From the NCBI GenBank assembly GCA_020348965.1, contig CP070760.1:2624298-2679257 (forward strand): a DNA stretch of 54,960 bases, read 5' to 3'. Origin of the DNA: Candidatus Heimdallarchaeota archaeon (GTDB lineage Archaea > Asgardarchaeota > Heimdallarchaeia > Hodarchaeales > Hodarchaeaceae). Below the pieces are notes generated by a model, which saw only the letters and a program-made list of their open reading frames with translations, did not search any database and was not told the DNA's origin. Position numbers and translations under genes: made by a program. This document shows, in pieces, positions 1,124 through 46,780 of this stretch (positions are counted from its first letter, which is position 1; each line of letters opens with the position of its first letter).

Positions 1124-1909
1124 ATGGAGTTAAATTTTCCACGCGTGGGTGAACTTGTCATCGGAACATGTACTAAGTTAACACCCCATGGGGCATATTT
1201 TGAAATCTTTGATTATGAAAAGCTCGGTTCAGAAGCAGGATTTGTTCATATCTCGGAATTAAGTCGGACTTGGGTACGAAATATTCGGAGTCACATCCGA
1301 GAGGGACAGAGAGCTGTATCGAAAATACTTCGAGTTGATACAGCACGCGGAGAGATAGATATGTCCATCCGAAGAGTATCAGAGCCTCAACGTAGAATGA
1401 AGCTTAATGAATTCAAACAGGAGAATCGTGCTCGTGGGATTGTGGCAGTTGCCTGTGAAAATGTCGATATTTCAGCTGAATCCGTTGAGGAGACGCTATT
1501 GGGGAATTTTAACTCAATATATGAGGGGTTGATAAAAGCAAGAGAAGGAGAAGTGGCATTACTTACTGAGATCGGAATTCCTGAAGTGGCAGCAAAGAAA
1601 ATCCATCAATTAGCTGTGAAAGAACTACAACCTCCTACTGTTCAATTAGCGGGACTTGTGACAATAACATGCTACGAATCAAATGGTGTTGAAATTCTAA
1701 AAGAATTCTTCAAAACTTATAATAAAAGCTTTAATAAAAAGCATAAAGGTTCTAAGATTAATATTCAAATTATTTCCCCTCCTGAGTATCGTTGCATGAT
1801 CGAAAGTGGGGATTGGAAAACAGCCGAAGGCATTTGGAAAGAAATACAGGAAGAATCAAACCAATTCTTTAGTCCTTATGATGCTGAATGTTCTTTTGAA
1901 CGACAATAA
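1124..1909 (+). CDS. eif2a: Translation initiation factor aIF2 alpha subunit
   Basis: N-terminal S1 fold (PRVGELVIGTCTKLTPHGAYFEI...GFVHISELS..WVRNIRSHIREGQ) and typical length. GGTGA Shine-Dalgarno upstream. Confidence 0.9.
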   Translation: MELNFPRVGELVIGTCTKLTPHGAYFEIFDYEKLGSEAGFVHISELSRTWVRNIRSHIREGQRAVSKILRVDTARGEIDMSIRRVSEPQRRMKLNEFKQENRARGIVAVACENVDISAESVEETLLGNFNSIYEGLIKAREGEVALLTEIGIPEVAAKKIHQLAVKELQPPTVQLAGLVTITCYESNGVEILKEFFKTYNKSFNKKHKGSKINIQIISPPEYRCMIESGDWKTAEGIWKEIQEESNQFFSPYDAECSFERQ

Positions 1910-1934
1910 GTTTCAAACTGCTGTTGGGACACAT

Positions 1935-2111
1935 ATGCGATTGTTAAGAAAGTGTAAATGTAGCTACACCATGGATCAATCTAAAGAATTGTGTGACAAA
2001 TGCGGTTACAGATTTCACAGTGCCTATCCTCCAAAATATTCTCCTCATGACAAATATGCTGATTATCGGAGAAAAATGAAGGAGCATGCCAAGCAGCAGG
2101 GATTGTTATGA
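1935..2111 (+). CDS. nop10: H/ACA RNP protein Nop10
   Basis: 58 aa MRLLRKCKC..YT...CDKCG...SAYPPKYSPHDKYADYRR. The track ORF (1806-2111) is trimmed to the internal ATG because its upstream part overlaps the eIF2alpha 3' end. Confidence 0.9.
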   Translation: MRLLRKCKCSYTMDQSKELCDKCGYRFHSAYPPKYSPHDKYADYRRKMKEHAKQQGLL

Positions 2112-3034: not shown

Positions 3035-4021
3035 TTGAAAGAATACTTCATAAAGGCTAGCGATGCCTTAACAGGGTTGAATAATAGTGTTTCGACCAAT
3101 GCCCGAAGTGTTGCTGATATAACGATCAAAATTTATACAAAATTTGAAGAAATCCGATACATGAGTGAATCTATTCCTGACTACATTCTTCATCCTGATC
3201 AAACTAAGTCCAATTTGAAAGCGAGTGGCGAGATCAGAGTCGCCCAACTCCTTTCCTCAATCCTATGTGAACGAATTGCTGATCACTCAAAACGATTAGC
3301 CGAAGATCTAGATTTCGGGGAAGAGGGTCTGAATGTTCGCGAGGAAATACGCGAAATTCAAGATCAAATTAACCGATTGAACGAAGTTGTTCAAGTTCAA
3401 AAGAAATTAGCTGATGGTGCTCCTGTTTCAACCGAGAGTATTAAGGATCTGCAGAAAAAATATAATACTCGAATAAATCAGTTGGAAGAAGAACTTCTTC
3501 GAAAGGAAGGTCGTGCATTAACTATAACTGCTTTAGATGCCACAAAGAAACCCAGACTATTCGGAAAAAAGAAGTTTGAGGAAAACTTAGGTGATCTTGT
3601 GTTAGAATATGGAAAAAATCTTCGTGCAAGTTCTGGAGGATATATCTCGCTTGCACATTTATATACGGCACTCAAGGACCAAGTTCCAGATATCGAGTTT
3701 TCAGCCAAAGATCTTGAAAACGCATGTAAACGTCTCAAAAAACAATCTCTTATTGAAGGAATTACGAAAAGATCAGGAGTTAAGATAGTTGAATTTGTTC
3801 CAGTCACTCTCGGAAGTGATGCAAGGAAAGTTTTTGACTTAGCGGTTAGTAAAGGATATGTTACCTTAGAAGAAGTTGTTTTGGGGACAAAATGGGATCA
3901 ACAACGCGTGATCCGCGTTCTTGAAAGCCTTGTATCACAGAAGGTTGCACGAAAGGTTTCTTCTCTTGATACAGGAGATCAATATTATTTTCCAGGATTA
4001 TATGGAGACAGTGATTGGTAG
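3035..4021 (+). CDS. ESCRT-II Vps22/Snf8-like EAP30-domain protein with N-terminal coiled-coil extension
   Basis: The C-terminal about 150 aa align by eye with the tandem winged helices of Snf8/Vps22 (SGGYISLAHLY, SAKDLENACKRLKK, GYVTLEEVVLGTKWDQQRVIRVLESLV, QYYFPGLY). Start is uncertain: TTG at 3035 or ATG at 3161. Confidence 0.75.
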   Translation: MKEYFIKASDALTGLNNSVSTNARSVADITIKIYTKFEEIRYMSESIPDYILHPDQTKSNLKASGEIRVAQLLSSILCERIADHSKRLAEDLDFGEEGLNVREEIREIQDQINRLNEVVQVQKKLADGAPVSTESIKDLQKKYNTRINQLEEELLRKEGRALTITALDATKKPRLFGKKKFEENLGDLVLEYGKNLRASSGGYISLAHLYTALKDQVPDIEFSAKDLENACKRLKKQSLIEGITKRSGVKIVEFVPVTLGSDARKVFDLAVSKGYVTLEEVVLGTKWDQQRVIRVLESLVSQKVARKVSSLDTGDQYYFPGLYGDSDW

Positions 4022-4026
4022 GTGAA

Positions 4027-4917
4027 ATGATGGCAGAAGTAGAGAAATTTGGTGGATTATTTCACAGGATAGGAGACGCAGTTCATATTGGAACTAAAAA
4101 ATTCAAAGGAAAAGCGATTTTAAGCTCAGATTTCAGTGACGATGCAGAAAGTTCTTTAATTAATCGCTTAAAATCCGAGGATTATGATAGTTTTCGGAAG
4201 TTCGATGGTTTCATTGTTAAAGATCCAGAGAATGCAATTCTATTACAATCTGGAAGTCTAGTAGGTGTTGCTGGTAGCGGTATTTATGAACTTGACAAAC
4301 CAGCAAAACGTCCTGGTAGTGAGATAATTTGGGTAACTAAGCGTGAATTCATAATCAAATGGGGTTCACCAGGAATATACACATCTGATAATATCATGGT
4401 TGGATGTTATGGTATTTCACGCATGAGGGTTGTGAATCCTCGTAATTTTATAATGAATGTTGTTTCACACAAACAATATTATTCGGGAGAAGAATTGAAG
4501 AATTGGGTAAAACAAACTATAATTGCAGCAGTAAAGCACGTAATGTCACGTTATACGGTTCCCGAGTTATTAAAAGAACGTCGAAGTCTAGAAATACAAA
4601 CCCGTTCTGAATTAGGTCCTGAAACGTCCCGTTGGGGTTTAGAACTTGTTGGATTGGACATTGGGGGTTTTAAAGTGCCTGATGAATATCAAGCGCTCCT
4701 ATCCTATGAGGTCGAGAAACAAGTTTTAGCACAACAGCGAGAATTAGCGGAAGAGAGAAAGGAAATCGATGATGTTGCAGAGAAAGTGACGAAATACGAA
4801 CGAATGCTTGAACAAGCTGATGAGATGTTTCTCAGTGGTAAGATTTCCGAAGAAAAATACAAAAAGCTCACAGATAAATATTCTAAGAAGTTAGCACAAT
4901 TTAAGTCACAAATCTGA
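4027..4917 (+). CDS. SPFH/band-7-like protein (YdjI-type) with C-terminal coiled coil
   Basis: Pattern typical of the SPFH 'Band_7_1' family (IIWVTKREFIIKWGSPGIYTSDN..GCYGISRMRVVNPRNFI), then a heptad-rich tail. ATG 4027 is preferred over TTG 4015, which overlaps the end of the Vps22-like gene. Confidence 0.6.
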   Translation: MMAEVEKFGGLFHRIGDAVHIGTKKFKGKAILSSDFSDDAESSLINRLKSEDYDSFRKFDGFIVKDPENAILLQSGSLVGVAGSGIYELDKPAKRPGSEIIWVTKREFIIKWGSPGIYTSDNIMVGCYGISRMRVVNPRNFIMNVVSHKQYYSGEELKNWVKQTIIAAVKHVMSRYTVPELLKERRSLEIQTRSELGPETSRWGLELVGLDIGGFKVPDEYQALLSYEVEKQVLAQQRELAEERKEIDDVAEKVTKYERMLEQADEMFLSGKISEEKYKKLTDKYSKKLAQFKSQI

Positions 4918-4937
4918 TGAGGAGTATCTTTGGTTTA

Positions 4938-6689
4938 TTAGGTCTCTTCTGTCAGATTCCCACCACATTCAGGACAAAAAGCCATTCCAACTGCACTTAT
5001 TTCTTCGTAACACTCACTACACACTTTTTTTGCACAAGACATGCATGAGAAACTAATAGTGTTGGATCGAGGAAGTTCACAGACACCACAAAGAAACCCT
5101 ACTTGACGTTTTTTTAGTTGAAACGTCAGATCACGAATATTTATCTTCCCCTGGATCGTTCCATGCAATATATATTGTTCTAGCAATTCAATTGTATCAC
5201 TATCCGAATAGTTCGAAAGTGAAATAATCCTTTTAAGAGGAATATCGGTTTCGACTGTTTGATCAAAAAATTCCGATAATCTTGGATCTAATTGCAAGGT
5301 TTCCAGTGCAATGGGTTCGTATTCCGTCCATCCCATTTTAAGGGGACCTTTTTTACAGAAATAACATTCTTCTGTATCTGTTAAGTTAAAGGAATGAGTG
5401 TAATTAACCTTACAATGTGGACAGAACCTTGGAAGATCGATTATAAAGGCTGATATATTACCGCAAAAAGGACATTCATGTTTACTTCCTGTTGAACGGC
5501 AATTGGAACACATAACCCGCCTGCAATTTTGGCATTCAAAATAAAGATGAGGATCAGTATAATCAGAAGTATCTACTTGACAAAAAATGTTAAAGTGTCT
5601 TACTCCCTTAACTAAAAACGGATTAGAAAATTCTCCAGCAATAAGTCGAAGTCTGAGAAGTTTTGCCAACTTCTGAATTTGATCTAAGAGTTGAAGTGGA
5701 TATAGATTCAGTTTTAATGCTAGACCCTCAATGTCAATTCCATTCTCAAACCAATCATTTAAGGAGGGAGCAATAAAATCTTCCGATGTCAAGGTTCCTT
5801 CTAAGCTCTGGTTTAATACATTCAACAAGTTGATAAAGTCAGCTCTATCTACATCAAGCCGATGAAGCCAGAATTCAATAGGAATGCTTTGGTAAACAAA
5901 GATATCCTTTAGAACTTGGTTAATAATATTCAATGTCAGGTACAGGTATTCATAATTGCTAGAGAAGATGAAGTTGATTTCACTTCGGTGTCTTTCCAGA
6001 AGTTCCAAACATTCGTCTTTAGGAAGTTTGGTTAATTTACTTACATGGATTAGTGCAACTTCTGATTCTAATTGAAAACTTGTATTCATGAAACGAACAA
6101 GAAATTGGACATTTTTCTTCTCATCAGCGGAAGAATCGAAGTTTAAAGAAGTTAAATTATAAATACGTTGTTTAAGTGGATCAATGTAACCGATAAATTG
6201 ATTATTTTGAGCCATGAAGTCCAATATACCTTCCAAGTGGTCTTCAGTCCAATATAGCTGGTTTAAAAGAAATTTCAAATCGATCGCTGTTGTTGTGCCT
6301 AATTTCTGTTTAATTTCTGACATTGCTCCACGTAAAGTGAAGAATTTTCGAGGAATCACATCAAAAAATCCTTCAACATCTTGTACATTCAAGACAATTT
6401 GGCGTTCTAGCAGCTTACCTGGTAAATTGGTAATATCAATTAGATCACATATGTCTACAAAGCCTTTAGTTGCCAATTCGCGGGAGATTAAACGTTGGAG
6501 GAATCTAGTTGGGATAAACAATTCATCATCGACGCTGACAAAACCATATATTTCTTTTGTACCGATTTTAGAACGTAAAAATGTAGCGATTTCATCTGAT
6601 CTCCCTCTTGGAGTCATTTCACGCAATGGGAGCGGCTGCTCTGCTGCTTGGGCTTTCACGAGCCACTGTTGATTCTTTCTCCCAAACAT
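4938..6689 (-). CDS. Large helical/winged-helix-like protein with two Cys-rich zinc modules; C-terminal C4C4 RING-like; candidate E3 ligase
   Basis: C-terminal C-x2-C-x11-C-x2-C-x4-C-x2-C-x11-C-x2-C (nt 4965-5090). Central cluster of five CxxC pairs (approx nt 5345-5537). Sits next to the E1/Ubl/E2 genes. The function is inferred only. Confidence 0.5.
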   Translation of the reverse strand: MFGRKNQQWLVKAQAAEQPLPLREMTPRGRSDEIATFLRSKIGTKEIYGFVSVDDELFIPTRFLQRLISRELATKGFVDICDLIDITNLPGKLLERQIVLNVQDVEGFFDVIPRKFFTLRGAMSEIKQKLGTTTAIDLKFLLNQLYWTEDHLEGILDFMAQNNQFIGYIDPLKQRIYNLTSLNFDSSADEKKNVQFLVRFMNTSFQLESEVALIHVSKLTKLPKDECLELLERHRSEINFIFSSNYEYLYLTLNIINQVLKDIFVYQSIPIEFWLHRLDVDRADFINLLNVLNQSLEGTLTSEDFIAPSLNDWFENGIDIEGLALKLNLYPLQLLDQIQKLAKLLRLRLIAGEFSNPFLVKGVRHFNIFCQVDTSDYTDPHLYFECQNCRRVMCSNCRSTGSKHECPFCGNISAFIIDLPRFCPHCKVNYTHSFNLTDTEECYFCKKGPLKMGWTEYEPIALETLQLDPRLSEFFDQTVETDIPLKRIISLSNYSDSDTIELLEQYILHGTIQGKINIRDLTFQLKKRQVGFLCGVCELPRSNTISFSCMSCAKKVCSECYEEISAVGMAFCPECGGNLTEET

Positions 6690-6873
6690 TGGTTTCGACC
6701 ATAATTCTAACTATTTCTTAACTGAAAGTTCTAAAAGTTCTGCATCTTCAGCTGATAAATTATCAATGGCATTTAACAATTATTGACGAGTTCGTGTTAA
6801 ACTTATTAAAGTGAGTGTTATTAACTATTATGAAAGAGTAAAAGGTCAATCAAAAACTAGAGGAAAATGATCA

Positions 6874-7191
6874 ATGAGTCACCAAAACATTAAGTGTTCA
6901 AAATGCGGCTATATTCCACGAGATCAACCTGTTTCTGGGGCTTGGTATTGCCCTAAATGTGGAAAGCGTATGACAATTGGGTCTTCTCGTCCTAAAACAA
7001 CCCGAAAATTCTATCGAAAACCTGTTACCGTTCAGAAATCACGAGATCAAGTCACAAGTCAGATTTATAGGAAGTTAGCTGTTGATAAACCAACAGATCT
7101 CGGTTTAAAAGAATCTTACATAAATCCAAAGGTTGATCCAATCTTTCCTAAGCGTAGAGATAAAATGCGATTATTCTATAAAAAGGATTAA
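6874..7191 (+). CDS. Small zinc-ribbon protein with a basic tail, function unknown
   Basis: CSKCG-x16-CPKCG ribbon at the N-terminus, then a Lys/Arg-rich tail. GAGGA Shine-Dalgarno upstream of the ATG. Confidence 0.5.
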   Translation: MSHQNIKCSKCGYIPRDQPVSGAWYCPKCGKRMTIGSSRPKTTRKFYRKPVTVQKSRDQVTSQIYRKLAVDKPTDLGLKESYINPKVDPIFPKRRDKMRLFYKKD

Positions 7192-7229
7192 AGTCTCACT
7201 AAGTAATATTGTACTAAAAGGGAGATTAC

Positions 7230-8459
7230 CTACTTCTGGAATTTAATTTGCAATCGAATTTCCTCATCACCAACCAATGAGCTTAAAGTTATCCGATCAC
7301 CATCCGAGAGAAAGTCTGCTATGATTCCATCTTCAGGGAGAAGTTTATTGCCAAGAAATCCAACAGTATCTTTACTTTTCTTAGGTTGAGTTTTCTCAAA
7401 TAAAGTCTTGAATTTTGAGGATGGATCAACCTCTACTTCAAAAAATGTTTGAGAATCAATTGTGGGTTGACCACAAACAAGACAATTAGGATCAGGAACC
7501 ATCTCAAAAGTGTTTATTGACCCAGTCAAGGCTGAATAAATAAAAAGCGAAGGGATTCTAAATCTGTGAGTATCAATCAAGAAATCTAGTCTTTTCATTT
7601 CGTTTTTTTTAAAAGACGTTCTCTTTTCTAGAAAAAGAGCTTTCAGGATTTCTTGGGATTGTATTCCACTGGTTACTGCATTAACAGTTATTAAACTAGG
7701 TACACGGAAAAGTATTAGTTGCAGGAGTTCTTTTTCGTCGAAATTACTATAGTTATATTTTTTAGCATATTTATTAGCAAAATTCGTGAGTATGGAAAGA
7801 TCCTCTTGAGAGGTTTCTAATGGTTCGCGATCATATGACGTGTTGAAGTCGTAGAGTGCTTTCCATGCACAATGTTCTCTTTGGCGGGGAGCCCCCACGA
7901 GTGTACATGGAGCTGTCAATATACGAGTTTCGTCCGGAGGAGCCGGATTATCACAGGCAAGACAGGCTGTTTTTCTAGGATTAATATATTGTACTTGGCC
8001 AAAAAAACCATCTGTAGCAGAATCGATCAGCGGTTTATTCAATTCAACCGCCATCGCATTAATAAATTGCCTTGCCAAGAAATTATCAACACACCCAGCA
8101 ATGATATCTACCTCCCGAAAAGCTCTTTGAGGGATTCTTTGAAGAATATCAGGAAAACTCTCAATTTTAATATCGGGATTATATTGTTCCTGAATTCTCA
8201 TTCTTGCGATTTCTGACTTTTTCTCGCCAACATCTTCTTCTCTGAATAACATTTGACGATTTAAGTTTGAAAACTCAATGGTGTCCGCGTCGACCAAAAT
8301 TAATTTCCCAGTGCCTAAAAGAGCTAAATTTTTTGCTACCTCGCTGCCTGTCCCCCCAACTCCTGCAATTAAAATTTGACTGTCTTCAATAATTTGCTGA
8401 TCCCAAAGAGACAATCTTTTTTGACGGTCATATTTAGAAGAAGGAAGATCTTGTGACAT
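7230..8459 (-). CDS. Ubiquitin-activating enzyme E1-like (ThiF/MoeB/UBA fold with C-terminal ubiquitin-fold-like domain)
   Basis: Nucleotide loop GVGGTGSEVAKNLALLG and DADTIEFSNLNRQ. Eukaryote-like catalytic-Cys segment TAPCTLVGAPRQREHCAWKA. Zn pairs CLAC and CLVC. Confidence 0.85.
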   Translation of the reverse strand: MSQDLPSSKYDRQKRLSLWDQQIIEDSQILIAGVGGTGSEVAKNLALLGTGKLILVDADTIEFSNLNRQMLFREEDVGEKKSEIARMRIQEQYNPDIKIESFPDILQRIPQRAFREVDIIAGCVDNFLARQFINAMAVELNKPLIDSATDGFFGQVQYINPRKTACLACDNPAPPDETRILTAPCTLVGAPRQREHCAWKALYDFNTSYDREPLETSQEDLSILTNFANKYAKKYNYSNFDEKELLQLILFRVPSLITVNAVTSGIQSQEILKALFLEKRTSFKKNEMKRLDFLIDTHRFRIPSLFIYSALTGSINTFEMVPDPNCLVCGQPTIDSQTFFEVEVDPSSKFKTLFEKTQPKKSKDTVGFLGNKLLPEDGIIADFLSDGDRITLSSLVGDEEIRLQIKFQK

Positions 8460-8520
8460 ATCATTGAATTTTCCTTTTGAAAATCTTTGGGATCAGAGAG
8501 TCAGTCTTAAAGAACGAGGT

Positions 8521-8841
8521 CTAACCCCCTTTAATCTGATCAGGAACGATCATGAGGATCGCATTCTGTTCTATTCCATAAGAGGAAAGATTATTCGAGG
8601 GATTCATTCGCCGACCTTTGAATAATAGGGCGATGGGTACTACTTCTGGAATGTTGAAAGCATCTCTAGCCGCATTGATAGCTTGAAATACTGTCCCGTT
8701 GATATTGATGTATTTTTCCCGAATATTTTGATCTGGGGGGAGTTGTGGATCTTTAAATCGTACTTTTATCATTTTTTCAATACCACTATCAGGAGCTTTT
8801 CCTGGAGTAGTAGAATCCCAAATGACATCCTTTTTACTCAT
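8521..8841 (-). CDS. Ubiquitin-like beta-grasp modifier ending in Gly-Gly-stop
   Basis: C-terminus ...MIVPDQIKGG followed directly by the stop. Beta-grasp-sized core from MIKVRFKD. ATG 8841 is preceded by AGGTGA, so it is preferred over GTG 8850. Confidence 0.8.
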   Translation of the reverse strand: MSKKDVIWDSTTPGKAPDSGIEKMIKVRFKDPQLPPDQNIREKYININGTVFQAINAARDAFNIPEVVPIALLFKGRRMNPSNNLSSYGIEQNAILMIVPDQIKGG

Positions 8842-8858
8842 ATTTTTCACCTTTCTGT

Positions 8859-9644
8859 TTAAGTATAAAACATTCGTTCAATTTCTGAGAGCGTGGAGAG
8901 AAGGTCTATCCGTCCCTTAACATAATCCTCCAAAGGCCCTCGTATCAGTGGATATTTAGTTAAAACCTCACTATCTAATCCAATCGGAAAATTCTTTTTA
9001 CGCTTGACGATTAAATTTATCACTTCGCCATCCTGAGCATAAAATCGCACAGTAACCTCTTTTTTCCCTGCTGTCGCATCATAGTTCGTCAATATTTGTT
9101 GTATGAGAGGATTGCGTTCAGCTGGTACGGTGGTAGTTTCAGCAGCAACGTGTTCACCCATTACCTGGGGAAGAGCGACTTCAGCTTTTTGATGAATCTC
9201 CTCTAAAACATCTAACACTGAACTTGTTCCAGGAGTCCAATTTTTCATCGTATCTAGGTCATTAATTTCGCAATCTAAAATTTCTCTGAGTTTAGCTGGG
9301 CCGTCGATGTAGGGTCGGTCAGGAAGGTCATCCAACACAAGTAACAGCGGAAAAGCATATTCACTTACTTGCATCTTTATCCTAACCTTACCCACTTCAT
9401 CACCAACTAATTCTCCAAGAAAATTTTCAAGGACTTTCTGCGATTCTTGATAAATGTGATAGTAATCTTCAGCTTCCTCCTCAACCTCAATCGTTTTCGC
9501 TTCCGTTGGCGTTAAAGCAGTCCTCTTCAAGTAATTTGTTAGGTCACAGTATTCACATTTAATAGGGTGATTAAATGTGGGTCTTAAAGCAAGAGGTGCT
9601 CCACAGCCGTTACATTGGGAAACATCAGTTACCATATCGCTCAT
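8859..9644 (-). CDS. Zinc-ribbon protein with two alpha/beta modules, unknown function; first gene of the Ubl-E1 transcription unit
   Basis: N-terminal CNGCG-x17-CEYC ribbon. Same strand as the Ubl gene, which begins 17 nt downstream of its stop (from ATG 8841). Confidence 0.6.
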   Translation of the reverse strand: MSDMVTDVSQCNGCGAPLALRPTFNHPIKCEYCDLTNYLKRTALTPTEAKTIEVEEEAEDYYHIYQESQKVLENFLGELVGDEVGKVRIKMQVSEYAFPLLLVLDDLPDRPYIDGPAKLREILDCEINDLDTMKNWTPGTSSVLDVLEEIHQKAEVALPQVMGEHVAAETTTVPAERNPLIQQILTNYDATAGKKEVTVRFYAQDGEVINLIVKRKKNFPIGLDSEVLTKYPLIRGPLEDYVKGRIDLLSTLSEIERMFYT

Positions 9645-9802
9645 TTTTTTTGATCACCCATTAAGTGAGGAATATTCGTTCGTGATAAGTCAGTCTTTTG
9701 ACCTTAAAAAACTAACTTATTCTGGTGAGAAATTTCCATTTCCCAACCACAGCTTTAAATATCGGCATCGGGTGGAAAACTTAACAGCCATATTGGGCTT
9801 TA
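9645..9802. promoter_or_regulatory. Divergent promoter region between the ZnR-Ubl-E1 and E2-JAMM units
   Basis: 158-bp AT-rich spacer between head-to-head genes, with TATA-like CTTTAAATAT and CTTAAAAAA elements. No transcription start data. Confidence 0.4.
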
Positions 9803-10411
9803 ATGGATATTTCTTTTAAAAACTTGGTTAAATACCTTCTTAAATATATTGTGGATGGTACCAACGTGCAGGATTTACACTCCAGACGGCTAAGAGAAGA
9901 GTTTAAACGGATGTTGAAAACCTATCCGCCAAAAACAAGCTCTATTAAGTGGGTCATTGTAAATAACGACCTACATAATTATAAAGCAACAATTAAAGGG
10001 AAATCAAATACTCCATATGAAAAAGGTGAATGGGAAATCACAGTCGATTTACCACCTGAATATCCCTTTCGTCCTCCCATTATCAATTTCCTAACTCCCA
10101 TCTGGCATCCGAATATCTCTGTTGGTCAAACACGATGGAAGTGGGGGAGTAACGTATGTTTAAGCCTTGTGAATTGGAATAATATGGGGAAATCAGGTGG
10201 TTGGAAAGAAACGATAACTTTGCCAAGTGTATTTGAACACATTGAAATGATGTTGGATGTTTATCGTGCAACAGGGGATGTTGACTTTCCAGAATATCTC
10301 GTGGATCCGAATGATCCATTTAATCCTGAAGCAGGGGAACAGATGAGGAAAAAATTTGATAACTTCTGGCAACAGGCTGTCGAATGGACCGAGAAACACG
10401 CTATTGATTAA
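9803..10411 (+). CDS. Ubiquitin-conjugating enzyme E2 (UBC fold)
   Basis: RRLREEFKRM helix 1, PYEKGEWEITVDLPPEYPFRPP, HPN motif (WHPNIS) and catalytic Cys in NVCLSL. Confidence 0.85.
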   Translation: MDISFKNLVKYLLKYIVDGTNVQDLHSRRLREEFKRMLKTYPPKTSSIKWVIVNNDLHNYKATIKGKSNTPYEKGEWEITVDLPPEYPFRPPIINFLTPIWHPNISVGQTRWKWGSNVCLSLVNWNNMGKSGGWKETITLPSVFEHIEMMLDVYRATGDVDFPEYLVDPNDPFNPEAGEQMRKKFDNFWQQAVEWTEKHAID

Positions 10412-10439
10412 TCATCTGAATTAGCCATGGGAACTTTAA

Positions 10440-11024
10440 ATGTCTAAAGAAAGAAAACAAGAAGAACTATCTAAAGAAGAAACCGGGTCCGAGATCAAAG
10501 ATAACATGAATCCTCAAATAGAAAATCTGGATGAACCTGAAGATTCCACAATTTCTTTGACTTCTAAAGTGAAATCTGTGACCATTTTAGGAAATTTACT
10601 TGATGACATGACTGAATATGCCCACAAAGCAATGCCTAGGGAAGCCATTGGTCTATTGGGCGGAACGGAATTTCGTCCTTCAGAATTAAAAGTGTCAAAA
10701 ATACTGTTTGTAACCGAGGGTGATGAAGTTTCTGTATCCTTCTCGGATGAGGATTTCAACTCATTCCAAGAAATACTCGAAGGCGATCTGTATTGTTGTG
10801 GGTGGTGGCATTCTCATCCTGGATATGGACTATTTCTCTCACAAACGGATATAACAACTCAGATTTACTCCTTTCAGCTTCACAATGATATTTCCGTCGC
10901 CCTTGTGGTTGAACCTACGTCAATCGGTGCTAATGGGCGTGCTGCTTTCCAGTTTTATCAAGTTGTTGGTGAAGAGGGGAAAACTCCTTTTACATACAAA
11001 GAGATTGCTAGTTATATTCAATAG
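10440..11024 (+). CDS. JAB1/MPN/JAMM metalloisopeptidase (Rpn11-like deubiquitinase)
   Basis: Upstream Glu (PREAIGLLGG) and JAMM motif HSHPGYGLFLSQTD. Lies 28 nt downstream of the E2 gene. Confidence 0.85.
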   Translation: MSKERKQEELSKEETGSEIKDNMNPQIENLDEPEDSTISLTSKVKSVTILGNLLDDMTEYAHKAMPREAIGLLGGTEFRPSELKVSKILFVTEGDEVSVSFSDEDFNSFQEILEGDLYCCGWWHSHPGYGLFLSQTDITTQIYSFQLHNDISVALVVEPTSIGANGRAAFQFYQVVGEEGKTPFTYKEIASYIQ

Positions 11025-11213
11025 TAGTGGAACTATTTAATCTCCCAGCATTCTTGAACACAATATTCTGATATGAGAGCTGTTAAGAAAGCGATTAGAT
11101 TTATTCAAGAAATGAATTGCCACTAGGTTTATTCAACAAATAGAAGGGAGATGGATTGAAAGTTCTATCAGACGTAAGAAAAACGATTTAAATTTCTAAA
11201 ATTTTTGTTGTCT

Positions 11214-12014
11214 ATGAGTCTGATGATGAGATCAATTGGTTTTACAGAGTTTTTCTTAAAATATCTTATTCAGATTTTCCTTCAAGACGCATATACCATT
11301 GTTGATATGTTTATAATTTTTTTAGGCCCTGGAACAGTTTTATTTTTTACTTTCTATCTTATGTGGTCTGGAAGACGGAAAAATCACAAAATAATGAAAC
11401 TGACACGAGAAGCCCTTCTAGAAGTCTTTTCAGATGAATTTAGTGATCTTGTAATGGATGAAATGAGTTCAAACGGTGGTTTATTATATCCAAAGTACAA
11501 GAAATCATTCGATTCGCCTTTTAAAGATTTCCGTGTTGTATTTGCATTGGAAGAAAGGCATCTCATGTTATCGGTAATAATCTCTAAGTTTTCAGGTGTA
11601 AATGACTACATTGCTCTGGAAGCCAACTCAAAAAAAGGAAAAATTCCGACTAAAATTCAAATTATACCCAAACATGAAGAAGGTCAGATAAAAAAACACC
11701 AAGATTTACTTTTCACCCTTGATGAAATTCAACTAAGGGTACAAAAATTAGATGATTTCTTTGTACTCAAAGCAACATCACAACGGAGTGGGACCTATTT
11801 TCTTGGTGATAAAGAGCTCCTGAAACTAATCTATACTCTTCGGAAGGTAATCGTTCGAATTTCTATCGATTCTGGGGAAGATCCAGCAATTCGTATCTAT
11901 GCAAGAATTAATGAAGATTTAAATCTCGAAAAATTACATGAATTATTTCTTGTCCTTTGTAAACGGGTTGATGAGGTCTCTGAAAAAGTTGTTATGAAGA
12001 AAAGACGTGGATAA
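11214..12014 (+). CDS. Membrane-anchored hypothetical protein
   Basis: One or two N-terminal hydrophobic helices, then a soluble alpha/beta region. No recognisable motif. Confidence 0.45.
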   Translation: MSLMMRSIGFTEFFLKYLIQIFLQDAYTIVDMFIIFLGPGTVLFFTFYLMWSGRRKNHKIMKLTREALLEVFSDEFSDLVMDEMSSNGGLLYPKYKKSFDSPFKDFRVVFALEERHLMLSVIISKFSGVNDYIALEANSKKGKIPTKIQIIPKHEEGQIKKHQDLLFTLDEIQLRVQKLDDFFVLKATSQRSGTYFLGDKELLKLIYTLRKVIVRISIDSGEDPAIRIYARINEDLNLEKLHELFLVLCKRVDEVSEKVVMKKRRG

Positions 12015-12041: not shown

Positions 12042-12605
12042 TTACATAAGGTCAAGTTTCTCTGTAACCCTCTGACGTAACCACTCAAGTCCTTCTTCGA
12101 CATTGAAACCCGTTTTAGCAGAGGTAGGAACAATCGCATAAGAGTGAGTAGTGACTTTATGAAGATTAAGGGCTCGAGCCACCTCTCCTGCAGAAGCTGC
12201 ATTTTCTAGATCCTGTTTATTAGCAAGGACTAGAATGGGAATATTTTCAACTCGATCATTGTCGAGGACATATTTCCAAAGCTCTGCTTGGGCTTCTGGA
12301 AATCGGTAATTATCAGCTGAGTCGACAACATATACAATTCCCATAGAACCAGCCATATAACTTTCCCAAAGAGATTCACGGAAGGCTTCTTGGCCTCCTA
12401 TGTCCCAAGAAATGAATCTAACATTTCCTGAGCTAAATTCATCAACATTCATACCCAATGTTCGGAAAGTACTACCATCAAATTCTCCAGAGGTTATCCT
12501 TCTTACAATAGTGGTTTTTCCAGCGTGGTCGAGACCCAACCACGCAATCTTCACTGTTAATTTCTCTTTGGCAATCTTTGCACGGAGCTTTGAAAGAAAA
12601 CTCAT
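12042..12605 (-). CDS. Arf/Arl-family small GTPase
   Basis: P-loop GLDHAGKTT, Arf-type switch II WDIGGQEAFR, NKQDL, SAKTG. N-terminal amphipathic segment MSFLSKLRAKIAK. Confidence 0.85.
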   Translation of the reverse strand: MSFLSKLRAKIAKEKLTVKIAWLGLDHAGKTTIVRRITSGEFDGSTFRTLGMNVDEFSSGNVRFISWDIGGQEAFRESLWESYMAGSMGIVYVVDSADNYRFPEAQAELWKYVLDNDRVENIPILVLANKQDLENAASAGEVARALNLHKVTTHSYAIVPTSAKTGFNVEEGLEWLRQRVTEKLDLM

Positions 12606-12614
12606 TTAGAGCAC

Positions 12615-13166
12615 CTATACGTTTTTCCGTGACATTTGTCTACGGAACTTGTCACTCATCCACTGCCAAGGTTCATCGACACCTTCACCAGTCAGTGCTG
12701 AACAAGGATAAACTGCAAAGGATCTAGGTCTTGCAGCCATCTCTTTTTCAAGGCCTAATGTGTGAATGATGCTTTCAAGAGACATGGCTTCTTCTAAATC
12801 TTGCTTGTTTGCCAAAAAAAGAAAAGCAGAGTCTTCTGGCGACCATTGAATAACATTTTTTAGCCATTTTCCAGCTTTTTCTACCTTAGATCTATCTGCT
12901 GAGTCAAAAACGAATACAATTCCTGAAGCTTTTGATACAAATGGTTCCCATAGGCTGGTGGGGTATGTTGGTTGTCCTCCTAAATCTGCTGCCATTACTT
13001 CAATGTCGCCTATCTTTAGGGTTTCAATATTCATCCCCATCGTTGGTACGGTCTCTAGATTTTCATCTCCCTTAAGTCTTTTTACCAAAGTTGTCTTTCC
13101 TGCATTTGCTAGGCCAACAAAAGCCATTTGATTTTCTATCTCACGTCCGAATAGTTTTGTAGGCAT
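12615..13166 (-). CDS. Arf/Arl-like small GTPase (divergent paralog)
   Basis: GLANAGKTT, DLGGQ, NKQDL, CSALTG. Lies 9 nt upstream of the other Arf-like gene. Confidence 0.8.
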   Translation of the reverse strand: MPTKLFGREIENQMAFVGLANAGKTTLVKRLKGDENLETVPTMGMNIETLKIGDIEVMAADLGGQPTYPTSLWEPFVSKASGIVFVFDSADRSKVEKAGKWLKNVIQWSPEDSAFLFLANKQDLEEAMSLESIIHTLGLEKEMAARPRSFAVYPCSALTGEGVDEPWQWMSDKFRRQMSRKNV

Positions 13167-17557: not shown

Positions 17558-18259
17558 TTAAAATTGTTTGTGCCCGAACTCCAAAATATCTAGAATTTGG
17601 GAAACCCCTCTTGGTAAGCTGAATCGCTGGTTGTCCCAATCAGCAATTATGAGACGTCTCCAAGAGGCGAATTGAAGCTGGGAATAAACTTCTTCTTGGG
17701 GTTGTTGAATGTTCTTAGCAATCTCAATGAGTTCTCCATTCGATTTTTTTACAGCTAAAAGAATGTGATAGTATTCCTTAATCGCGTTAAGCACAATTAA
17801 GCCCAAGGCATGCTCAATTTTTTCCCCAGTTCTCGCTGATGTCCCTACTACTGAAATTTTATCCTTATTTTTCCCTAGAACTGCTTCTGCTACTTCCTTG
17901 GGGCTTTTCGCACCTCGAATGTCCTGTTTGTTTGCACAGAGGACAAGAGGAACACCTGGCAGGATATCATAAACTTCTTCCAGGAGTCTTTCAGCCTCTT
18001 CGAAAGAGGCAATATTTACAGAATCAACAATAAAAAGAATCCCATCGGCTCCTTTACTGAGAATTTTTCGGATAACTTCAAATCGTTGGAGCCCCGGTGT
18101 ACCAAATAGGAAGATTTCAACTCCATAAATTTGTGTTCGGCAGTGATCTAAAGCAACAGTTGTTCCGCCATAATCGATAGAGATTGCAGAGTCACTGCAT
18201 ATCATGTGAACAGTTGTTGTTTTGCCAGAATTGTAAGGTCCTAATAAAACTATCTTCAT
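17558..18259 (-). CDS. Small GTPase of the archaeal MglA-like/COG2229 type with a C-terminal extension of about 75 aa
   Basis: GPYNSGKTT, FGTPGLQRF, NKQD, TSARTG. The tail has a helix-rich, winged-helix-like pattern. Confidence 0.7.
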   Translation of the reverse strand: MKIVLLGPYNSGKTTTVHMICSDSAISIDYGGTTVALDHCRTQIYGVEIFLFGTPGLQRFEVIRKILSKGADGILFIVDSVNIASFEEAERLLEEVYDILPGVPLVLCANKQDIRGAKSPKEVAEAVLGKNKDKISVVGTSARTGEKIEHALGLIVLNAIKEYYHILLAVKKSNGELIEIAKNIQQPQEEVYSQLQFASWRRLIIADWDNQRFSLPRGVSQILDILEFGHKQF

Positions 18260-40453: not shown

Positions 40454-40646
40454 AATAATCCATCCTAGCAAGTATAAAAATCAATATTGTTTCCTTTTTA
40501 TGGTTTTTTAGCTTGAATGCTTAAAAGAGATTAAGACTACGATCATTAATAAATATACCTAGATTGGCTTGATAGTCAGAAGATAGGGTTCTATTATAGA
40601 ATTACGATTCAACTGAGAAAGGAGCCGTTGTTTAGGCTTGAATAAA

Positions 40647-42701
40647 ATGTCTAGTTTAGATATTTATGCCATTTCAAAAGAGCTACAGGGAATAATAGGG
40701 TACAGAGTAGATAATGTCTATCGTGATTTATCAGATACCTTATTTCTTTTCAAATTCAAAGGAAAAGGCCCATATAAGAGTCCATTTCTTCTTATCGAAC
40801 CAGGAATACGATTACATCTGACAGAGGTGAAATATCAAGTTCCTGAACGGCCCTCCGACAAGATTGTAGGAATGAGAAGCCACCTCAAGGGAGCTGAAGT
40901 GACTGGGATACGTCAAATCGATTTTGATCGAATAGTGGAGATTTCATTAAGAGGAAAACAACAATATCAAATTTTTATTGAGATATTTGGGAACCGTCCA
41001 AATTTAGTGATTGTTGGGGATCAAAACAGAGTAATATCAGCACTTTGGTATAAAAAAATGCGTCATCGTGATTTATTACCAGGGAAAGAATTCGAACTAC
41101 CTCCTAGTCGGGGAAAATCAATTCTAGATATGAATAATGAAGAAATTAAACAGATTGTTAAAATGAAAGAAATCGAAAAAGAGAAAATCATAAGGACATT
41201 AGCTCAAAAGGCAGGAGGAGGAGGAAGATTAATGGAGGAAGTGCTAGCACGAGCCAACATTCCCAAAGATAAAATGAATGAAGATATTCGTGAGGAAGAA
41301 TTTAATAGGATCAAAAAAGCCACAATGGGAATTAAAAGGGACTTAGAGAAATTAAAGCCTTCAGTAGCTTTTGATTCCAATGAAAAACCAATATCTTTTC
41401 AACCAATTGACCTGATTACAATTTCAGGACAAGTTCAATATTTTGAGAGCTTCTCATTAGCAATGGATTATTATTATACAAATATTACCCCTAAAACGTC
41501 TGCAGACCTTAAACGGTATGATCAGAAGAAAAAAAGGCTTCTTAAAGTGTTAGAGGCTCAAAAACAGACTATTGAAGGTTTTGAAATAAAGAAAAAGTAT
41601 TATAAGGAGCTAGGAGACAAGATTTACCTTCAATTAAATGAAATGGACGAATTATTATCTACAATCTTGACAGCAAGGAAAAAAAATATTGATTGGCCCG
41701 AAATTCAGAATAAATTAGCACATGCGAAAGAAAATGGAGTACCATCGGCAAGAATTCTTGAAAAAATTTTTCCAGAAAGAGGTGTTATTCGTCTCAATCT
41801 AGATTCGGAAATAATCGAAGTAGATTTCAGAAAACCTGCAAGCGAGATTGCAAATGGGTATTACCAGCGTGCAAAAAAAGCTGCGAGAAAAATTGCACCT
41901 GCTAAGGAGGCAATACTTGAAACTGAAAGAAAAATTGATCTCCTATCTAAGGACATAACTGTACAGCGAAAAGAAGAAAGCATTTCTTTGAAACGAAGAA
42001 AACGAAAATGGTATGAGAAATATCATTGGACAAAAACTCAAAACAGATTTCTAGTAATAGGTGGTAGGGATGTTAATAGCAATGTAGAAATAGTAAAACG
42101 ACGAATGAAGGAGGAAGATTTCTTCTTTCATGCAGAAATACGTGGAGCTCCATATACCATTTTAATTCGTGACAGTAGTGATCAAAAACCTGAAGATCTA
42201 GACCTTAATGAAGCTGCACTTCTTGCAGCTACATTTTCTAGTGGATGGAAAGAAGGTTACGGAGCAGTAGATGTATATTATGTACCAGCCAGAAATACCA
42301 GTTTTACAGCTCCAAGTGGAGAATACATACCGAAGGGAGGAATAATGGTTCGAGGGACCCGAAAATATGTTCGGGGAGTAGAAATGGCTTTAACACTTGG
42401 GATTCAGCTAAATAAGTTTAACGCATCAGTTATATATGGGTCTGAAGAAACCATACGATCACAAAGTCCGATTACTATTACTATCAAGCCTGGTTCTGTA
42501 AGTAAAGGGAAAATAGCTAAACATATTCGTCACATTTTCATTGAAAAAACAGAAATCCCAGAGAACAAAGCTAAAATCAAAGCAATTGACCTAAATGAAT
42601 TTGTACACGCAATTCCCCATAATTCTGAAATTATTAAAGTAGAATATGGATTGATAAAGGAAAATTCGATAGATTACATGAAATCGTCTTCAGAAGATTG
42701 A
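40647..42701 (+). CDS. NFACT-family protein (Rqc2/NEMF/FbpA homolog, ribosome quality control)
   Basis: NFACT-N start (SSLDIYAISKELQ), central coiled coil, NFACT-R/DUF814 (FFFHAEIRGAPYTILIR). Confidence 0.85.
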   Translation: MSSLDIYAISKELQGIIGYRVDNVYRDLSDTLFLFKFKGKGPYKSPFLLIEPGIRLHLTEVKYQVPERPSDKIVGMRSHLKGAEVTGIRQIDFDRIVEISLRGKQQYQIFIEIFGNRPNLVIVGDQNRVISALWYKKMRHRDLLPGKEFELPPSRGKSILDMNNEEIKQIVKMKEIEKEKIIRTLAQKAGGGGRLMEEVLARANIPKDKMNEDIREEEFNRIKKATMGIKRDLEKLKPSVAFDSNEKPISFQPIDLITISGQVQYFESFSLAMDYYYTNITPKTSADLKRYDQKKKRLLKVLEAQKQTIEGFEIKKKYYKELGDKIYLQLNEMDELLSTILTARKKNIDWPEIQNKLAHAKENGVPSARILEKIFPERGVIRLNLDSEIIEVDFRKPASEIANGYYQRAKKAARKIAPAKEAILETERKIDLLSKDITVQRKEESISLKRRKRKWYEKYHWTKTQNRFLVIGGRDVNSNVEIVKRRMKEEDFFFHAEIRGAPYTILIRDSSDQKPEDLDLNEAALLAATFSSGWKEGYGAVDVYYVPARNTSFTAPSGEYIPKGGIMVRGTRKYVRGVEMALTLGIQLNKFNASVIYGSEETIRSQSPITITIKPGSVSKGKIAKHIRHIFIEKTEIPENKAKIKAIDLNEFVHAIPHNSEIIKVEYGLIKENSIDYMKSSSED

Positions 42702-46069: not shown

Positions 46070-46780
46070 TCACATTCGGAGCTGGTTTGTAATATTAGGT
46101 AAATTTCGGAATTTTTTTACTTCTATTCGTTCATAAGCTTCCCCAGAAATTTCTACTCCAATATTTTGAACAAGATATCTTATTAAATCCTTCCGTAAGT
46201 CCTGAAGTCGATCGTTCAATGTAAGAAAAATCTCGATTTCCTCAACATATCTGTTAATTAGCTCTGGGGAAGGACTAAAGCGATTTAGGTGAAGTATATG
46301 TCGAATATAATCAGCAATTAGGATGACAAGACCAATAGTTTCTCCTGTAGAATAACGAATAGTGTTGGAAAAGAAAATGGTCAAATGATTAGATTTAGCT
46401 CCAATAGAGATCTTTGGAATACTTTCATGTGGAACAGAAATCAATCCTTGACTGATAATCACTAAAGTGCTATGTAAGGCAAGTAATATCAAGTCCTCAC
46501 GAGATTTCTTAATAAATCTTCCATTGACAATCTGTTTGGCGATATCTGCAGCTAGAAGAAGCGGGCTGTCATGGCGAGCAAGATTTTGAGGGAGGTATTC
46601 CTCTAATCCAGGAATATTTAGAATAGCAGCAATCTTAGACTTGGAAGAATAAGTTAGTTTTGTCTCAATAGATGAGCTAGGATCTAACTTAAAAGCCCGA
46701 GCTTGCGATGCAATTTTAAATTGAGTTTCAAGATCTCTTTTTAAATTTTGGATATATTCTTGAAACTCACTTTTGATCAT
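46070..46780 (-). CDS. polC: DNA polymerase D large subunit DP2, N-terminal 236-aa portion ending at an in-frame TGA
   Basis: KLDPSSSIE, the motif region aligned to GPIRSxGGT (NTIRYSTGET), RFSPSPELINRYVEEIEIF, ITNQLR. Same frame as 43463-46069, separated by a single TGA (46070-46072). Confidence 0.8.
   Translation of the reverse strand: MIKSEFQEYIQNLKRDLETQFKIASQARAFKLDPSSSIETKLTYSSKSKIAAILNIPGLEEYLPQNLARHDSPLLLAADIAKQIVNGRFIKKSREDLILLALHSTLVIISQGLISVPHESIPKISIGAKSNHLTIFFSNTIRYSTGETIGLVILIADYIRHILHLNRFSPSPELINRYVEEIEIFLTLNDRLQDLRKDLIRYLVQNIGVEISGEAYERIEVKKFRNLPNITNQLRM

Follow-up and report, generated by a model that had tools for sequence, protein, structure and literature searches.

The 54,960-nt stretch of Candidatus Heimdallarchaeota DNA analysed here (contig CP070760.1; hereafter the window) carries, at positions 3035-11024, a group of genes that we read as a ubiquitin-like conjugation system of the eukaryote type, encoded on the chromosome of a Heimdall-group (Hodarchaeales-type) Asgard archaeon, with a UFL1-like protein as its ligase (E3). 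We put the probability of this reading at roughly 0.6. At the centre of the locus are an activating enzyme (E1), a ubiquitin-like modifier (Ubl), a conjugating enzyme (E2) and a JAMM isopeptidase (JAB); as judged from sequence, this set is complete, its catalytic residues are intact and it is of the canonical eukaryote-like type. An earlier note on this DNA had listed nine genes with their coordinates and a 158-bp divergent spacer, and all are present: the nine open reading frames (ORFs) lie at 3035-11024 on the strands given for them (Table 1). They belong to at least five transcription units that alternate in direction and do not make up a single operon.

The conjugation core

The E1 finds its best PDB matches in UBA1 (5e-38), SAE2 (5e-30) and UBA3 (5e-28), and also matches UBA7; UBA5 is far behind at 3e-19. 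It combines a ThiF adenylation domain with a catalytic cysteine in a PxCT...HC segment. Residues 183-201 (APCTLVGAPRQREHCAWKA) align with the catalytic segment of UBA1 (ICTLKNFPNAIEH), the PCTL of the archaeal protein lining up with the catalytic ICTL of UBA1 and the catalytic Cys185 lying in a short PCTL...HC segment. Among the orthologues Cys185 and the two CxxC pairs are 100% conserved, and the enzyme is predicted to possess the full set of residues for adenylating a modifier and forming a thioester at Cys185. Related archaeal E1s carry a precomputed match to the ubiquitin family (PF00240), and the C-terminal region is probably a ubiquitin-fold domain.

The Ubl is 106 aa long from the ATG at 8841, which is the start used in its orthologues, and 109 aa long from the GTG at 8850. 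It is a β-grasp modifier ending in Gly-Gly; the C-terminus reads ...IKGG and is followed immediately by the stop codon, so that no C-terminal processing is needed. This GG-stop ending is found in 11 of 13 aligned sequences (the window and 10 of the 12 other loci), the other two (loci L028 and L029) having one extra residue. All 15 members of the Ubl family match the Pfam Rad60-SLD and ubiquitin models and none matches Ufm1. When the family profile is compared with the PDB, ubiquitin alone appears among the best 60 matches listed. The orthologues are 77-95% identical.

For the E2 the best PDB match is UBE2T (5e-19), followed by UBE2K and UBE2D. It is a UBC-fold protein whose HPN motif (residues 102-104) and catalytic Cys119 align with their UBE2T counterparts; both are 100% conserved across the orthologues, and the 14-residue spacer between them is also conserved. 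The JAB protein matches Rpn11 (5e-11), the Rpn11-like protein of Caldiarchaeum (4e-10), CSN5 (2e-9) and AMSH (7e-4). Its JAMM metalloprotease motif, E68 ... H-S-H-x7-S-x2-D, is present in the window sequence; Glu68 is 100% conserved across the orthologues, the HxH...S..D part having been read in the window sequence only. An Rpn11-type JAMM enzyme of this kind can be expected to reverse the modification. Pfam and PDB profiles thus bear out what the earlier note had picked out by eye, namely a eukaryote-type catalytic segment in the E1, a GG-stop in the Ubl, a UBC-type E2 and a JAMM enzyme.

A UFM1-type cascade was considered on account of the UFL1-like protein and a resemblance, seen by eye, of the Ubl to UFM1. 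It was rejected in view of an E1 that is much nearer to UBA1/2/3 than to UBA5, an E2 of the UBC/HPN type and a Ubl family in which Ufm1 matches are absent (0/15). None of the UFM1-pathway partners (UBA5, UFC1, UFM1 and UFSP) is found among the cluster neighbours of the UFL1-like protein, whose protease neighbour is of the JAMM type.

Table 1. Genes of the conjugation locus and the intergenic spacer, in window coordinates. Pfam assigns EAP30, Band_7, ThiF, Rad60-SLD/ubiquitin, UQ_con and JAB among the ORFs.
Feature	Coordinates	Strand	Basis
Vps22-like EAP30 protein, 328 aa	3035..4021	+	Pfam EAP30 3e-11
SPFH/Band-7 protein, 300 aa	4015..4917	+	Pfam Band_7 1e-16, Band_7_1 2e-11
UFL1-like protein, 583 aa, candidate E3	4938..6689	-	PDB profile, Foldseek
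Basic zinc-ribbon protein ZnR105, 105 aa	6874..7191	+	CxxC-x14-CxxC ribbon
Canonical-type E1, 409 aa	7230..8459	-	Pfam ThiF 2e-54
Ubiquitin/SUMO-like modifier (Ubl)	8521..8850	-	Pfam Rad60-SLD/ubiquitin 2e-6
Zinc ribbon + tandem E2/RWD-fold protein, 261 aa	8859..9644	-	AF2 model, Foldseek
Divergent intergenic spacer, 158 bp	9645..9802	.	Between 261aa-Ubl-E1 and E2-JAB units
UBC-type E2, 202 aa	9803..10411	+	Pfam UQ_con 1e-23
Rpn11/CSN5-type JAMM isopeptidase, 194 aa	10440..11024	+	Pfam JAB 8e-9
p269, single-pass membrane protein, 269 aa, possible extra member	11205..12014	+	Transmembrane segment

The UFL1-like protein and the other zinc proteins

The 583-aa protein is built from about six tandem winged helices (residues ~20-351), a zinc region with 11 cysteines (360-460), a PCI-like winged helix (469-525) and a C4C4 RING-like domain (530-583). 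A PDB search with the profile of its 39-member family finds human UFL1 at 5.7e-6 to 2.8e-5. In the AlphaFold 2 (AF2) model [pLDDT (predicted local distance difference test) 86.8] the chain folds into about six winged helices, a zinc-rich stretch, a further winged helix and a β-β-α zinc domain, and Foldseek identifies UFL1 as each of its top five PDB matches (E = 8e-10 to 2e-8, 264-365 aligned columns). The best of these come from 60S-bound complexes that contain UFL1. The tandem winged-helix array is homologous to that of UFL1; a 600-aa paralogue at locus L028 passes the Pfam E3_UFM1_ligase model (PF09743) with 23.9 bits against a cutoff of 23.2, and the window protein itself is below that cutoff. 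Residues 465-523 align to the DDRGK1 part of 8b9x and to 8c0d_B with non-significant domain E-values, and a Pfam PCI match (2.8e-4) also lies below its cutoff. For the middle 11-Cys region there is no family match.

Nineteen cysteines are invariant in this family. The last eight (C534, C537, C549, C552, C557, C560, C572 and C575) follow the pattern C-x2-C-x11-C-x2-C-x4-C-x2-C-x11-C-x2-C, a spacing which we take to be of the NOT4-like C4C4 kind. These eight predicted zinc ligands have the spacing of a cross-brace, which the C-terminus is predicted to form. Among Pfam models zf-RING_5, zf-RING_4, zf-RING_2, zf-C3HC4 and Prok-RING_4 match here, all below threshold and several over nearly their full length; PDB RING matches to residues 522-582 are weak (0.015-0.2) and include UHRF1, MAT1, BRE1 and NOT4. 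The description of this protein as winged-helix plus RING-like, which preceded these comparisons, survives both profile and structure, its RING-like part at sub-threshold level. From the profile and the model we infer that it is a candidate E3.

The 261-aa protein, encoded by the first gene of the 261aa-Ubl-E1 unit, has in its AF2 model (pLDDT 78) an N-terminal CxxC...CxxC ribbon, which is its sole zinc site, and then two α-β-α modules. Foldseek ranks FANCL chains first (1.6e-4 to 8e-4), then Ubc13, Ube2V1, VPS37A and the UEV domain of Vps23. Two consecutive UBC/RWD-fold modules are indicated by the topology of the model, by Foldseek and by the Pfam domains of relatives. Pfam applied to the family itself returns zinc-finger noise only and no sequence-level domain match for the window protein, and HMMER, run exhaustively against 1.84 billion representatives, detects no more than 24 relatives. 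More distant relatives carry the Pfam domains UQ_con, RWD and UBC_like; two of the relatives (P0263 and P0271) have UQ_con/RWD-type modules plus a weak, sub-threshold Prok-RING_1 match, and another (P0265) has a weak FANCL_d1 match. The window protein has neither the C-terminal RING of FANCL nor the steadiness box of Vps23, ending instead in the helices of its second module, and the HPN motif is absent. Cys125 is conserved in at least 90% of the family, three of the 36 members having R, N or S instead. The protein is apparently non-catalytic, going by its motifs and model. Its family is a rare E2/RWD-fold family, and some of the relatives may be FANCL-like in architecture.

ZnR105 has an isoelectric point of 10.2, matches only L37ae-type zinc ribbons, and these weakly, and ends in a conserved C-terminal motif with invariant G77, K79, Y82, P85, P92 and R95. 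Its gene is convergent with that of the E1, and the protein recurs adjoining the E1 at locus L033 and at the differently arranged L034, where two ZnR105-like ORFs stand back to back directly past the E1 gene (L034 6737-7246). Of the three proteins that had been left as zinc-finger unknowns, the 583-aa and 261-aa proteins are now assigned, as UFL1-like and E2/RWD-fold respectively, and the 105-aa protein stays a basic zinc-ribbon protein and nothing closer.

A possible extra member, p269, lies 3' of JAB on the same strand, has a transmembrane segment at residues 29-47 and is kept in all collinear loci. Eight of 14 members of its family match Pfam CCDC47, a subunit of the endoplasmic reticulum PAT complex, below threshold (best 3.4e-4), and a PDB profile search gave no match. 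The assignment as CCDC47 is kept as a lead only, the Pfam matches being repeated yet sub-threshold and a PDB profile match being absent. Among the E1-anchored loci, p269 was not seen adjoining E2-JAB outside the collinear clade.

Linkage to the cascade and competing readings

The same gene set recurs in identical order in all 26 related loci, so the co-occurrence of these genes is not due to chance; the lack of synteny with E1, E2 and Ubl that would have refuted the earlier note is not what these loci show. These clade loci are collinear all the way from GINS to a phosphoribosyltransferase gene (26/26), and within-clade synteny was dropped as proof of linkage because the housekeeping flanks are just as collinear. 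Other contexts, rearranged or paralogous, were therefore found with the E1 as anchor; a contig scan for the 583-aa family, which used zinc-motif patterns, returned the same clade only. At locus L027 the 261aa-Ubl-E1 unit lies on the far side of a GNAT...GINS block, and the EAP30, SPFH and UFL1-like genes are co-directional, the last two overlapping by 13 nt. Loci L028 and L030 hold a paralogous system (system B) of 261aa-like, Ubl, E1 and UFL1-like genes, the UFL1-like paralogue being directly 3' of the E1, with no E2, JAB, EAP30 or SPFH gene nearby. The 261aa-like, Ubl, E1, E2 and JAB genes are together at L029 (labelled Ranarchaeia). At L034 UFL1-like, Ubl, JAB, E2, E1 and the two ZnR105-like ORFs are reshuffled within ~7 kb. 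The Loki-type loci L031 and L032 have E1, E2 and JAB only. The 261-aa gene is consistently upstream of Ubl-E1, as at L027, L028, L029, L030 and L033, of which L029 is a distant locus. In these rearranged and paralogous contexts, more than one independent arrangement ties the three zinc proteins to the cascade.

System B spans L028 1870-13139 and L030 1-12039, its UFL1-like protein being 600 aa long. It is preceded by conserved genes for proteins of 1153-1257 aa, 348-390 aa (with a double zinc ribbon), 46 aa and 508-517 aa.

The first gene of the locus encodes a tandem winged-helix EAP30 protein whose family profile matches human SNF8/Vps22 at 6.4e-17 and yeast Vps22 at 3e-6 as against 6.5e-3 for Vps36, so that its description as Vps22-like holds. 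The two winged helices (~145-328) are preceded by an extra N-terminal helical region of ~130 residues, and the orthologues are 66-86% identical. This region (residues 1-135; 3035-3440 (+)) is absent from eukaryotic Vps22. [quoted passage not shown] The EAP30 stop codon overlaps the SPFH start by 7 nt, and through this overlap the EAP30 gene is predicted to be translationally coupled to the SPFH gene. The SPFH protein has an SPFH domain and a C-terminal coiled-coil tail, with weak PDB matches to stomatin (2.7e-4) and flotillin-2 (2.6e-3); its orthologues are 78-91% identical. It has no N-terminal anchor or hairpin, no 19-residue window reaching a hydrophobicity of 1.6 (maximum 1.16), and transmembrane prediction finds no segment in any of the nine cluster proteins. 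The proposal of a 'membrane-targeted' system accordingly lacks direct sequence support. Linkage of the EAP30-SPFH pair to the cascade is seen only in the collinear clade and at L027.

Under the reading preferred here, the E1 would charge the Ubl by adenylation and then by thioester formation at Cys185, and the E2 would receive it via HPN/Cys119. The C4C4 RING-like domain of the 583-aa protein would dock the charged E2, the UFL1-like winged-helix array acting as a substrate- or partner-binding scaffold. The 261-aa protein may be a non-catalytic E2-fold cofactor that binds modifier, E2 or substrate in the manner of UEV proteins or of the ELF/DRWD domains of FANCL, and ZnR105 an adaptor or a dedicated substrate. 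Modified targets would meet a downstream reader or platform in the Vps22-like/SPFH pair, and the Rpn11-type JAMM enzyme would undo the modification.

Several observations weigh against this scheme. Homology of the UFL1 scaffold does not establish E3 activity of the 583-aa protein, since eukaryotic UFL1 functions without a RING, with UFC1 and UFM1. Nowhere does a RING match of the 583-aa C-terminus rise above a curated threshold, and B-box, C1_2 and DZR models score there like the RING models, so the domain is RING-like but not proven. The FANCL match of the 261-aa protein has a low TM-score (0.31), and the near-invariance of Cys125 makes a catalytic role of this protein formally possible. Loki-type loci carry E1-E2-JAB without any extra partner. 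In the clade in which EAP30 and SPFH adjoin the cascade, collinearity extends equally to the flanking housekeeping genes (GINS, eIF2-alpha, ThrS and others), and L027 is only partly independent evidence for the pair, which stays there beside the same GNAT block. No ESCRT-III, Vps4, Vps25 or ESCRT-I gene is found in the 55-kb window or, in the relatives at loci L001 and L004, in the 10 kb past its left end. The Vps22-like gene is thus without Vps25, ESCRT-III or Vps4 for 44 kb to one side and ~13 kb to the other; as the sole ESCRT-type gene of this range, it is all that the 'sorting system' of the earlier note rests on.

A more far-reaching version, which we offer tentatively and consider rather unlikely as a whole, is that an ancestor-like UFL1, with a DDRGK1-like winged helix in one chain, is in Hodarchaeales-type archaea a RING-bearing E3 scaffold of a ubiquitin-type and not a UFM1-type cascade, has a FANCL-like tandem-RWD cofactor and is coupled to the Vps22-like/SPFH pair. 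The preferred reading competes with the view, also rather unlikely to our minds, that the functional unit is the core alone (261aa-Ubl-E1, E2-JAB and probably the UFL1-like protein). The Vps22-like/SPFH pair, and ZnR105 and p269 perhaps as well, would then be mere neighbours kept in place by the strong overall collinearity of this part of the chromosome, and the locus would have no ubiquitin-ESCRT or membrane function. That EAP30-SPFH forms a separate transcription unit convergent with the 583-aa gene agrees with such a core, as do the collinearity of housekeeping genes with the rest of the block in 26/26 clade loci, the absence of EAP30 and SPFH beside the cascade in system B and in the Loki-type and Ranarchaeia-labelled loci, and the lack of ESCRT-III, Vps4 or Vps25 genes nearby and of transmembrane segments in the nine proteins. 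At L027, however, the inverted UFL1-like gene stays directly after SPFH, co-directional and with the 13-nt overlap. ZnR105 recurs adjoining the E1 at L034 in spite of the reshuffling there, the EAP30 and SPFH proteins (66-91% identity) rank with the best conserved of the block, and a significant co-location of ubiquitin and ESCRT genes has been published for Heimdall and Hel genomes; these points count against a core-only view.

The 60S-bound state of the UFL1 structures that head the profile and structural matches raises another reading, a proto-UFMylation-like ribosome-associated quality control. The UFL1-like array would dock on the large subunit as human UFL1/DDRGK1 does, the RING and the E2 would attach a ubiquitin-type Ubl to a target on the ribosome or close to the translocon, and p269 and ZnR105 would be the membrane and ribosome adaptors. 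The weak alignment of residues 465-523 with the DDRGK1 winged helix fits this picture but is not significant alone, and ribosome binding is only inferred. The transmembrane anchor of p269 and its repeated CCDC47 match are likewise suggestive, yet the match is below threshold, is not seen in the PDB profile search, and p269 is unlinked to the cascade outside the collinear clade. ZnR105 is very basic and has an L37ae-type ribbon, and Picchianti et al. (2023; PMC10183829) propose that Asgard UFL1/DDRGK1 are older than UFM1 and have a UFM1-independent role. Against these stand an E1, E2 and Ubl that are not of the UBA5, UFC1 and UFM1 types, and a JAMM enzyme in place of a UFSP-type protease. On balance this reading is improbable.

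Bacterial-type anti-phage Ubl conjugation on a mobile defence island [Bil, or like Cap2/Cap3 of the cyclic oligonucleotide-based anti-phage signalling system (CBASS)] is very improbable and was rejected: PADLOC gives only generic domain-level matches (E1 to 'E1-E2' 1.5e-17, JAB to 'JAB' 1.5e-6), to which weak NCBIfam cap2_3 matches may be added, whereas PADLOC finds nothing for the E2, the Ubl or the 261-aa and 583-aa proteins, the E1 is far nearer to UBA1/2/3 (5e-38), E1 and E2 are separate proteins with no Cap2-like fusion, and the locus has a fixed collinear place among housekeeping genes in 26/26 clade loci with no compositional island.

Known systems, genomic setting and implications

Clusters of this type, with a UFL1-like 'E3' and ESCRT co-location, are already published. 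Hatano et al. (2022; PMC9192718) use IPR018611 ('E3 UFM1-protein ligase 1') as an Asgard E3 diagnostic and describe ubiquitin/ESCRT gene co-location in Heimdallarchaeota; B3_Heim, which they plot, is a member of the window's clade (locus L019), and their supplement has an Asgard E2 class with the same long HPN-to-Cys spacing as the window E2. Picchianti et al. (2023; PMC10183829) place the origin of UFL1 and DDRGK1 in Asgard archaea and suggest a UFM1-independent role. Given these two papers, to call the gene set 'not a described module', as the earlier note did, was an overstatement. Asgard ubiquitin/ESCRT clusters are credited to Spang (2015) and Zaremba-Niedzwiedzka (2017) as cited in Hatano et al. 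(2022; PMC9192718). Liu et al. report fusions in which E3 UFM1-ligase domains take part, as well as an ESCRT neighbourhood in which ubiquitin-system components are often present. A Helarchaeia E1/E2/RING E3 cascade works in vitro (Lu et al., 2023 preprint; 10.1101/2023.07.25.550441). Asgard Ufm1 homologues are described by Koestlbacher et al. (2026), and by its domain matches the window Ubl is not of that type.

With these Asgard clusters the locus shares a Ubl, a ThiF-type E1, a long-spacer UBC E2, a JAB protein, a UFL1-like 'E3' (IPR018611) and a neighbouring Vps22-like gene. It differs from them in that the Vps22-like gene is apart from Vps25, ESCRT-III and Vps4, has the ~130-residue N-terminal extension and is paired with SPFH; in the internal zinc cluster and C-terminal RING-like domain of the UFL1-like protein; and in the zinc-ribbon/tandem-RWD gene that precedes Ubl-E1. 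The literature searched holds no description of a UFL1-like protein with RING-like and zinc additions, the tandem-RWD gene ahead of Ubl-E1, ZnR105, the N-terminal extension of the Vps22-like protein or the Vps22-like/SPFH pairing.

The window E1 is 33-38% identical to E1s of Nitrososphaerota/Caldarchaeales. In Caldiarchaeum a small RING protein on its own serves as E3, in contrast to the RING-like domain at the end of a 583-aa UFL1-like scaffold found here; to our knowledge the Caldiarchaeum operon also has no tandem-RWD protein, ZnR105, Vps22-like or SPFH gene. The window Ubl, unlike that of Caldiarchaeum, needs no C-terminal processing. Otherwise the E1/E2/small-RING/Ub/Rpn11 operon of Caldiarchaeum subterraneum (PMC5654768, PMC6043591) is comparable as a minimal eukaryote-like cascade in an archaeon, and it has been reconstituted in vitro (PMC5654768).

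Compared with eukaryotic UFL1-DDRGK1, the tandem winged-helix array is homologous (profile 5.7e-6, fold 8e-10) and the PCI-like winged helix (469-525) weakly aligns with that of DDRGK1. Eukaryotic UFL1, in contrast, has no RING or zinc domains and is partnered by UBA5, UFC1, UFM1 and UFSP cysteine proteases, where the 583-aa protein has UBA1/3-like, UBC-type, Ub/SUMO-like and JAMM proteins as its neighbours; the archaeal protein is also ~200 residues shorter than human UFL1 (794-aa chain in the PDB). FANCL (ELF + DRWD + RING) working with UBE2T offers a second parallel, in that FANCL is the best fold match of the 261-aa protein and UBE2T is the solved structure nearest to the cluster E2 (5e-19). 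The 261-aa protein departs from FANCL in its N-terminal zinc ribbon, its lack of a C-terminal RING and TM-scores of ~0.3, and there is no sign of a FANCD2/FANCI-like substrate. ESCRT-II Vps22/SNF8 shares the EAP30 tandem winged-helix core with the first protein of the cluster (SNF8 6.4e-17), which is set apart by its extra N-terminal region, the overlap with an SPFH gene and the lack of a Vps25, ESCRT-III or Vps4 neighbour.

The cluster is hosted by a stretch of archaeal chromosome (G+C ~36-38%) whose base composition has no island signature across the window. The other window genes include GINS, S27e, eIF2-alpha, L15e, RNase P subunits, PolD, GatDE, NFACT and several Arf-family GTPases; the 54,960 nt were scanned for tRNAs and Rfam families with no hit. 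The 583-aa protein is identical to NCBI entry JSV04_13075 and the 261-aa protein to JSV04_13095, both encoded on a 3.16-Mb contig of a metagenome-assembled 'Candidatus Heimdallarchaeota archaeon', and homologues of the two come solely from metagenome-assembled genomes, labelled mostly Hodarchaeales, Hodarchaeota or Heimdallarchaeota. The 158-bp spacer, between the starts of the 261-aa gene (9644) and the E2 gene (9803), contains A/T-rich stretches of TATA-like sequence, e.g. 'ctttaaatat' ~40-50 bp upstream of the E2 ATG, and is presumed to hold a bidirectional promoter.

Further observations concern the genes around the cluster. Two tandem Arf-family GTPases abut it at 12042-13166 (-), with a third small GTPase 4 kb beyond the pair at 17558-18259 (-); one of the two is ~90% identical clade-wide, above most of its neighbours in conservation. 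An NFACT (NEMF/RqcH-type) ribosome quality-control factor is encoded at 40638-42701 (+), 30 kb from the cluster, and PDB 9gy4 contains human UFL1 on the 60S subunit with NEMF and LTN1; the nearness of NFACT to the cluster is probably coincidental. The PolD large subunit DP2 [43463-46780 (-)] is read as two abutting same-frame ORFs split by a single stop (...NQLRM*MCVAL...), for which a gene split, stop-codon read-through or a fault in the assembly are possible explanations. At 1806-2111 (+), where a mechanical ORF of 101 aa is called, relatives have a called Nop10p gene between eIF2-alpha and a GNAT gene, and a ~56-aa Nop10 gene is probably hidden in the C-terminal part of this ORF.

Asgard ubiquitin systems are the best available view of the origins of eukaryotic ubiquitin signalling, and some phylogenies put Hodarchaeales-type archaea near eukaryotes. 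The locus adds a concrete, testable candidate to this view: a UFL1-like scaffold with a RING-like end, tied by genome context to E1, E2, Ubl and JAMM. The zinc-ribbon/tandem-RWD family may be a prokaryotic root of FANCL-kind E3s, as its relatives P0263 and P0271 join UQ_con/RWD-type modules to a weak RING-like match. According to a 2025 preprint (10.1101/2025.02.26.640444), two strains have been isolated from the order proposed as nearest to the archaeal ancestor of eukaryotes, so that predictions made from the locus may be testable in cells as well as in vitro. The UFL1-like and tandem-RWD partners hint at a role for UFL1 before UFM1 existed. If the reading of a RING-bearing UFL1 is true, the locus would keep a pre-UFM1 function of UFL1 and an early link from ubiquitin-like tagging to ESCRT-II-like readers.

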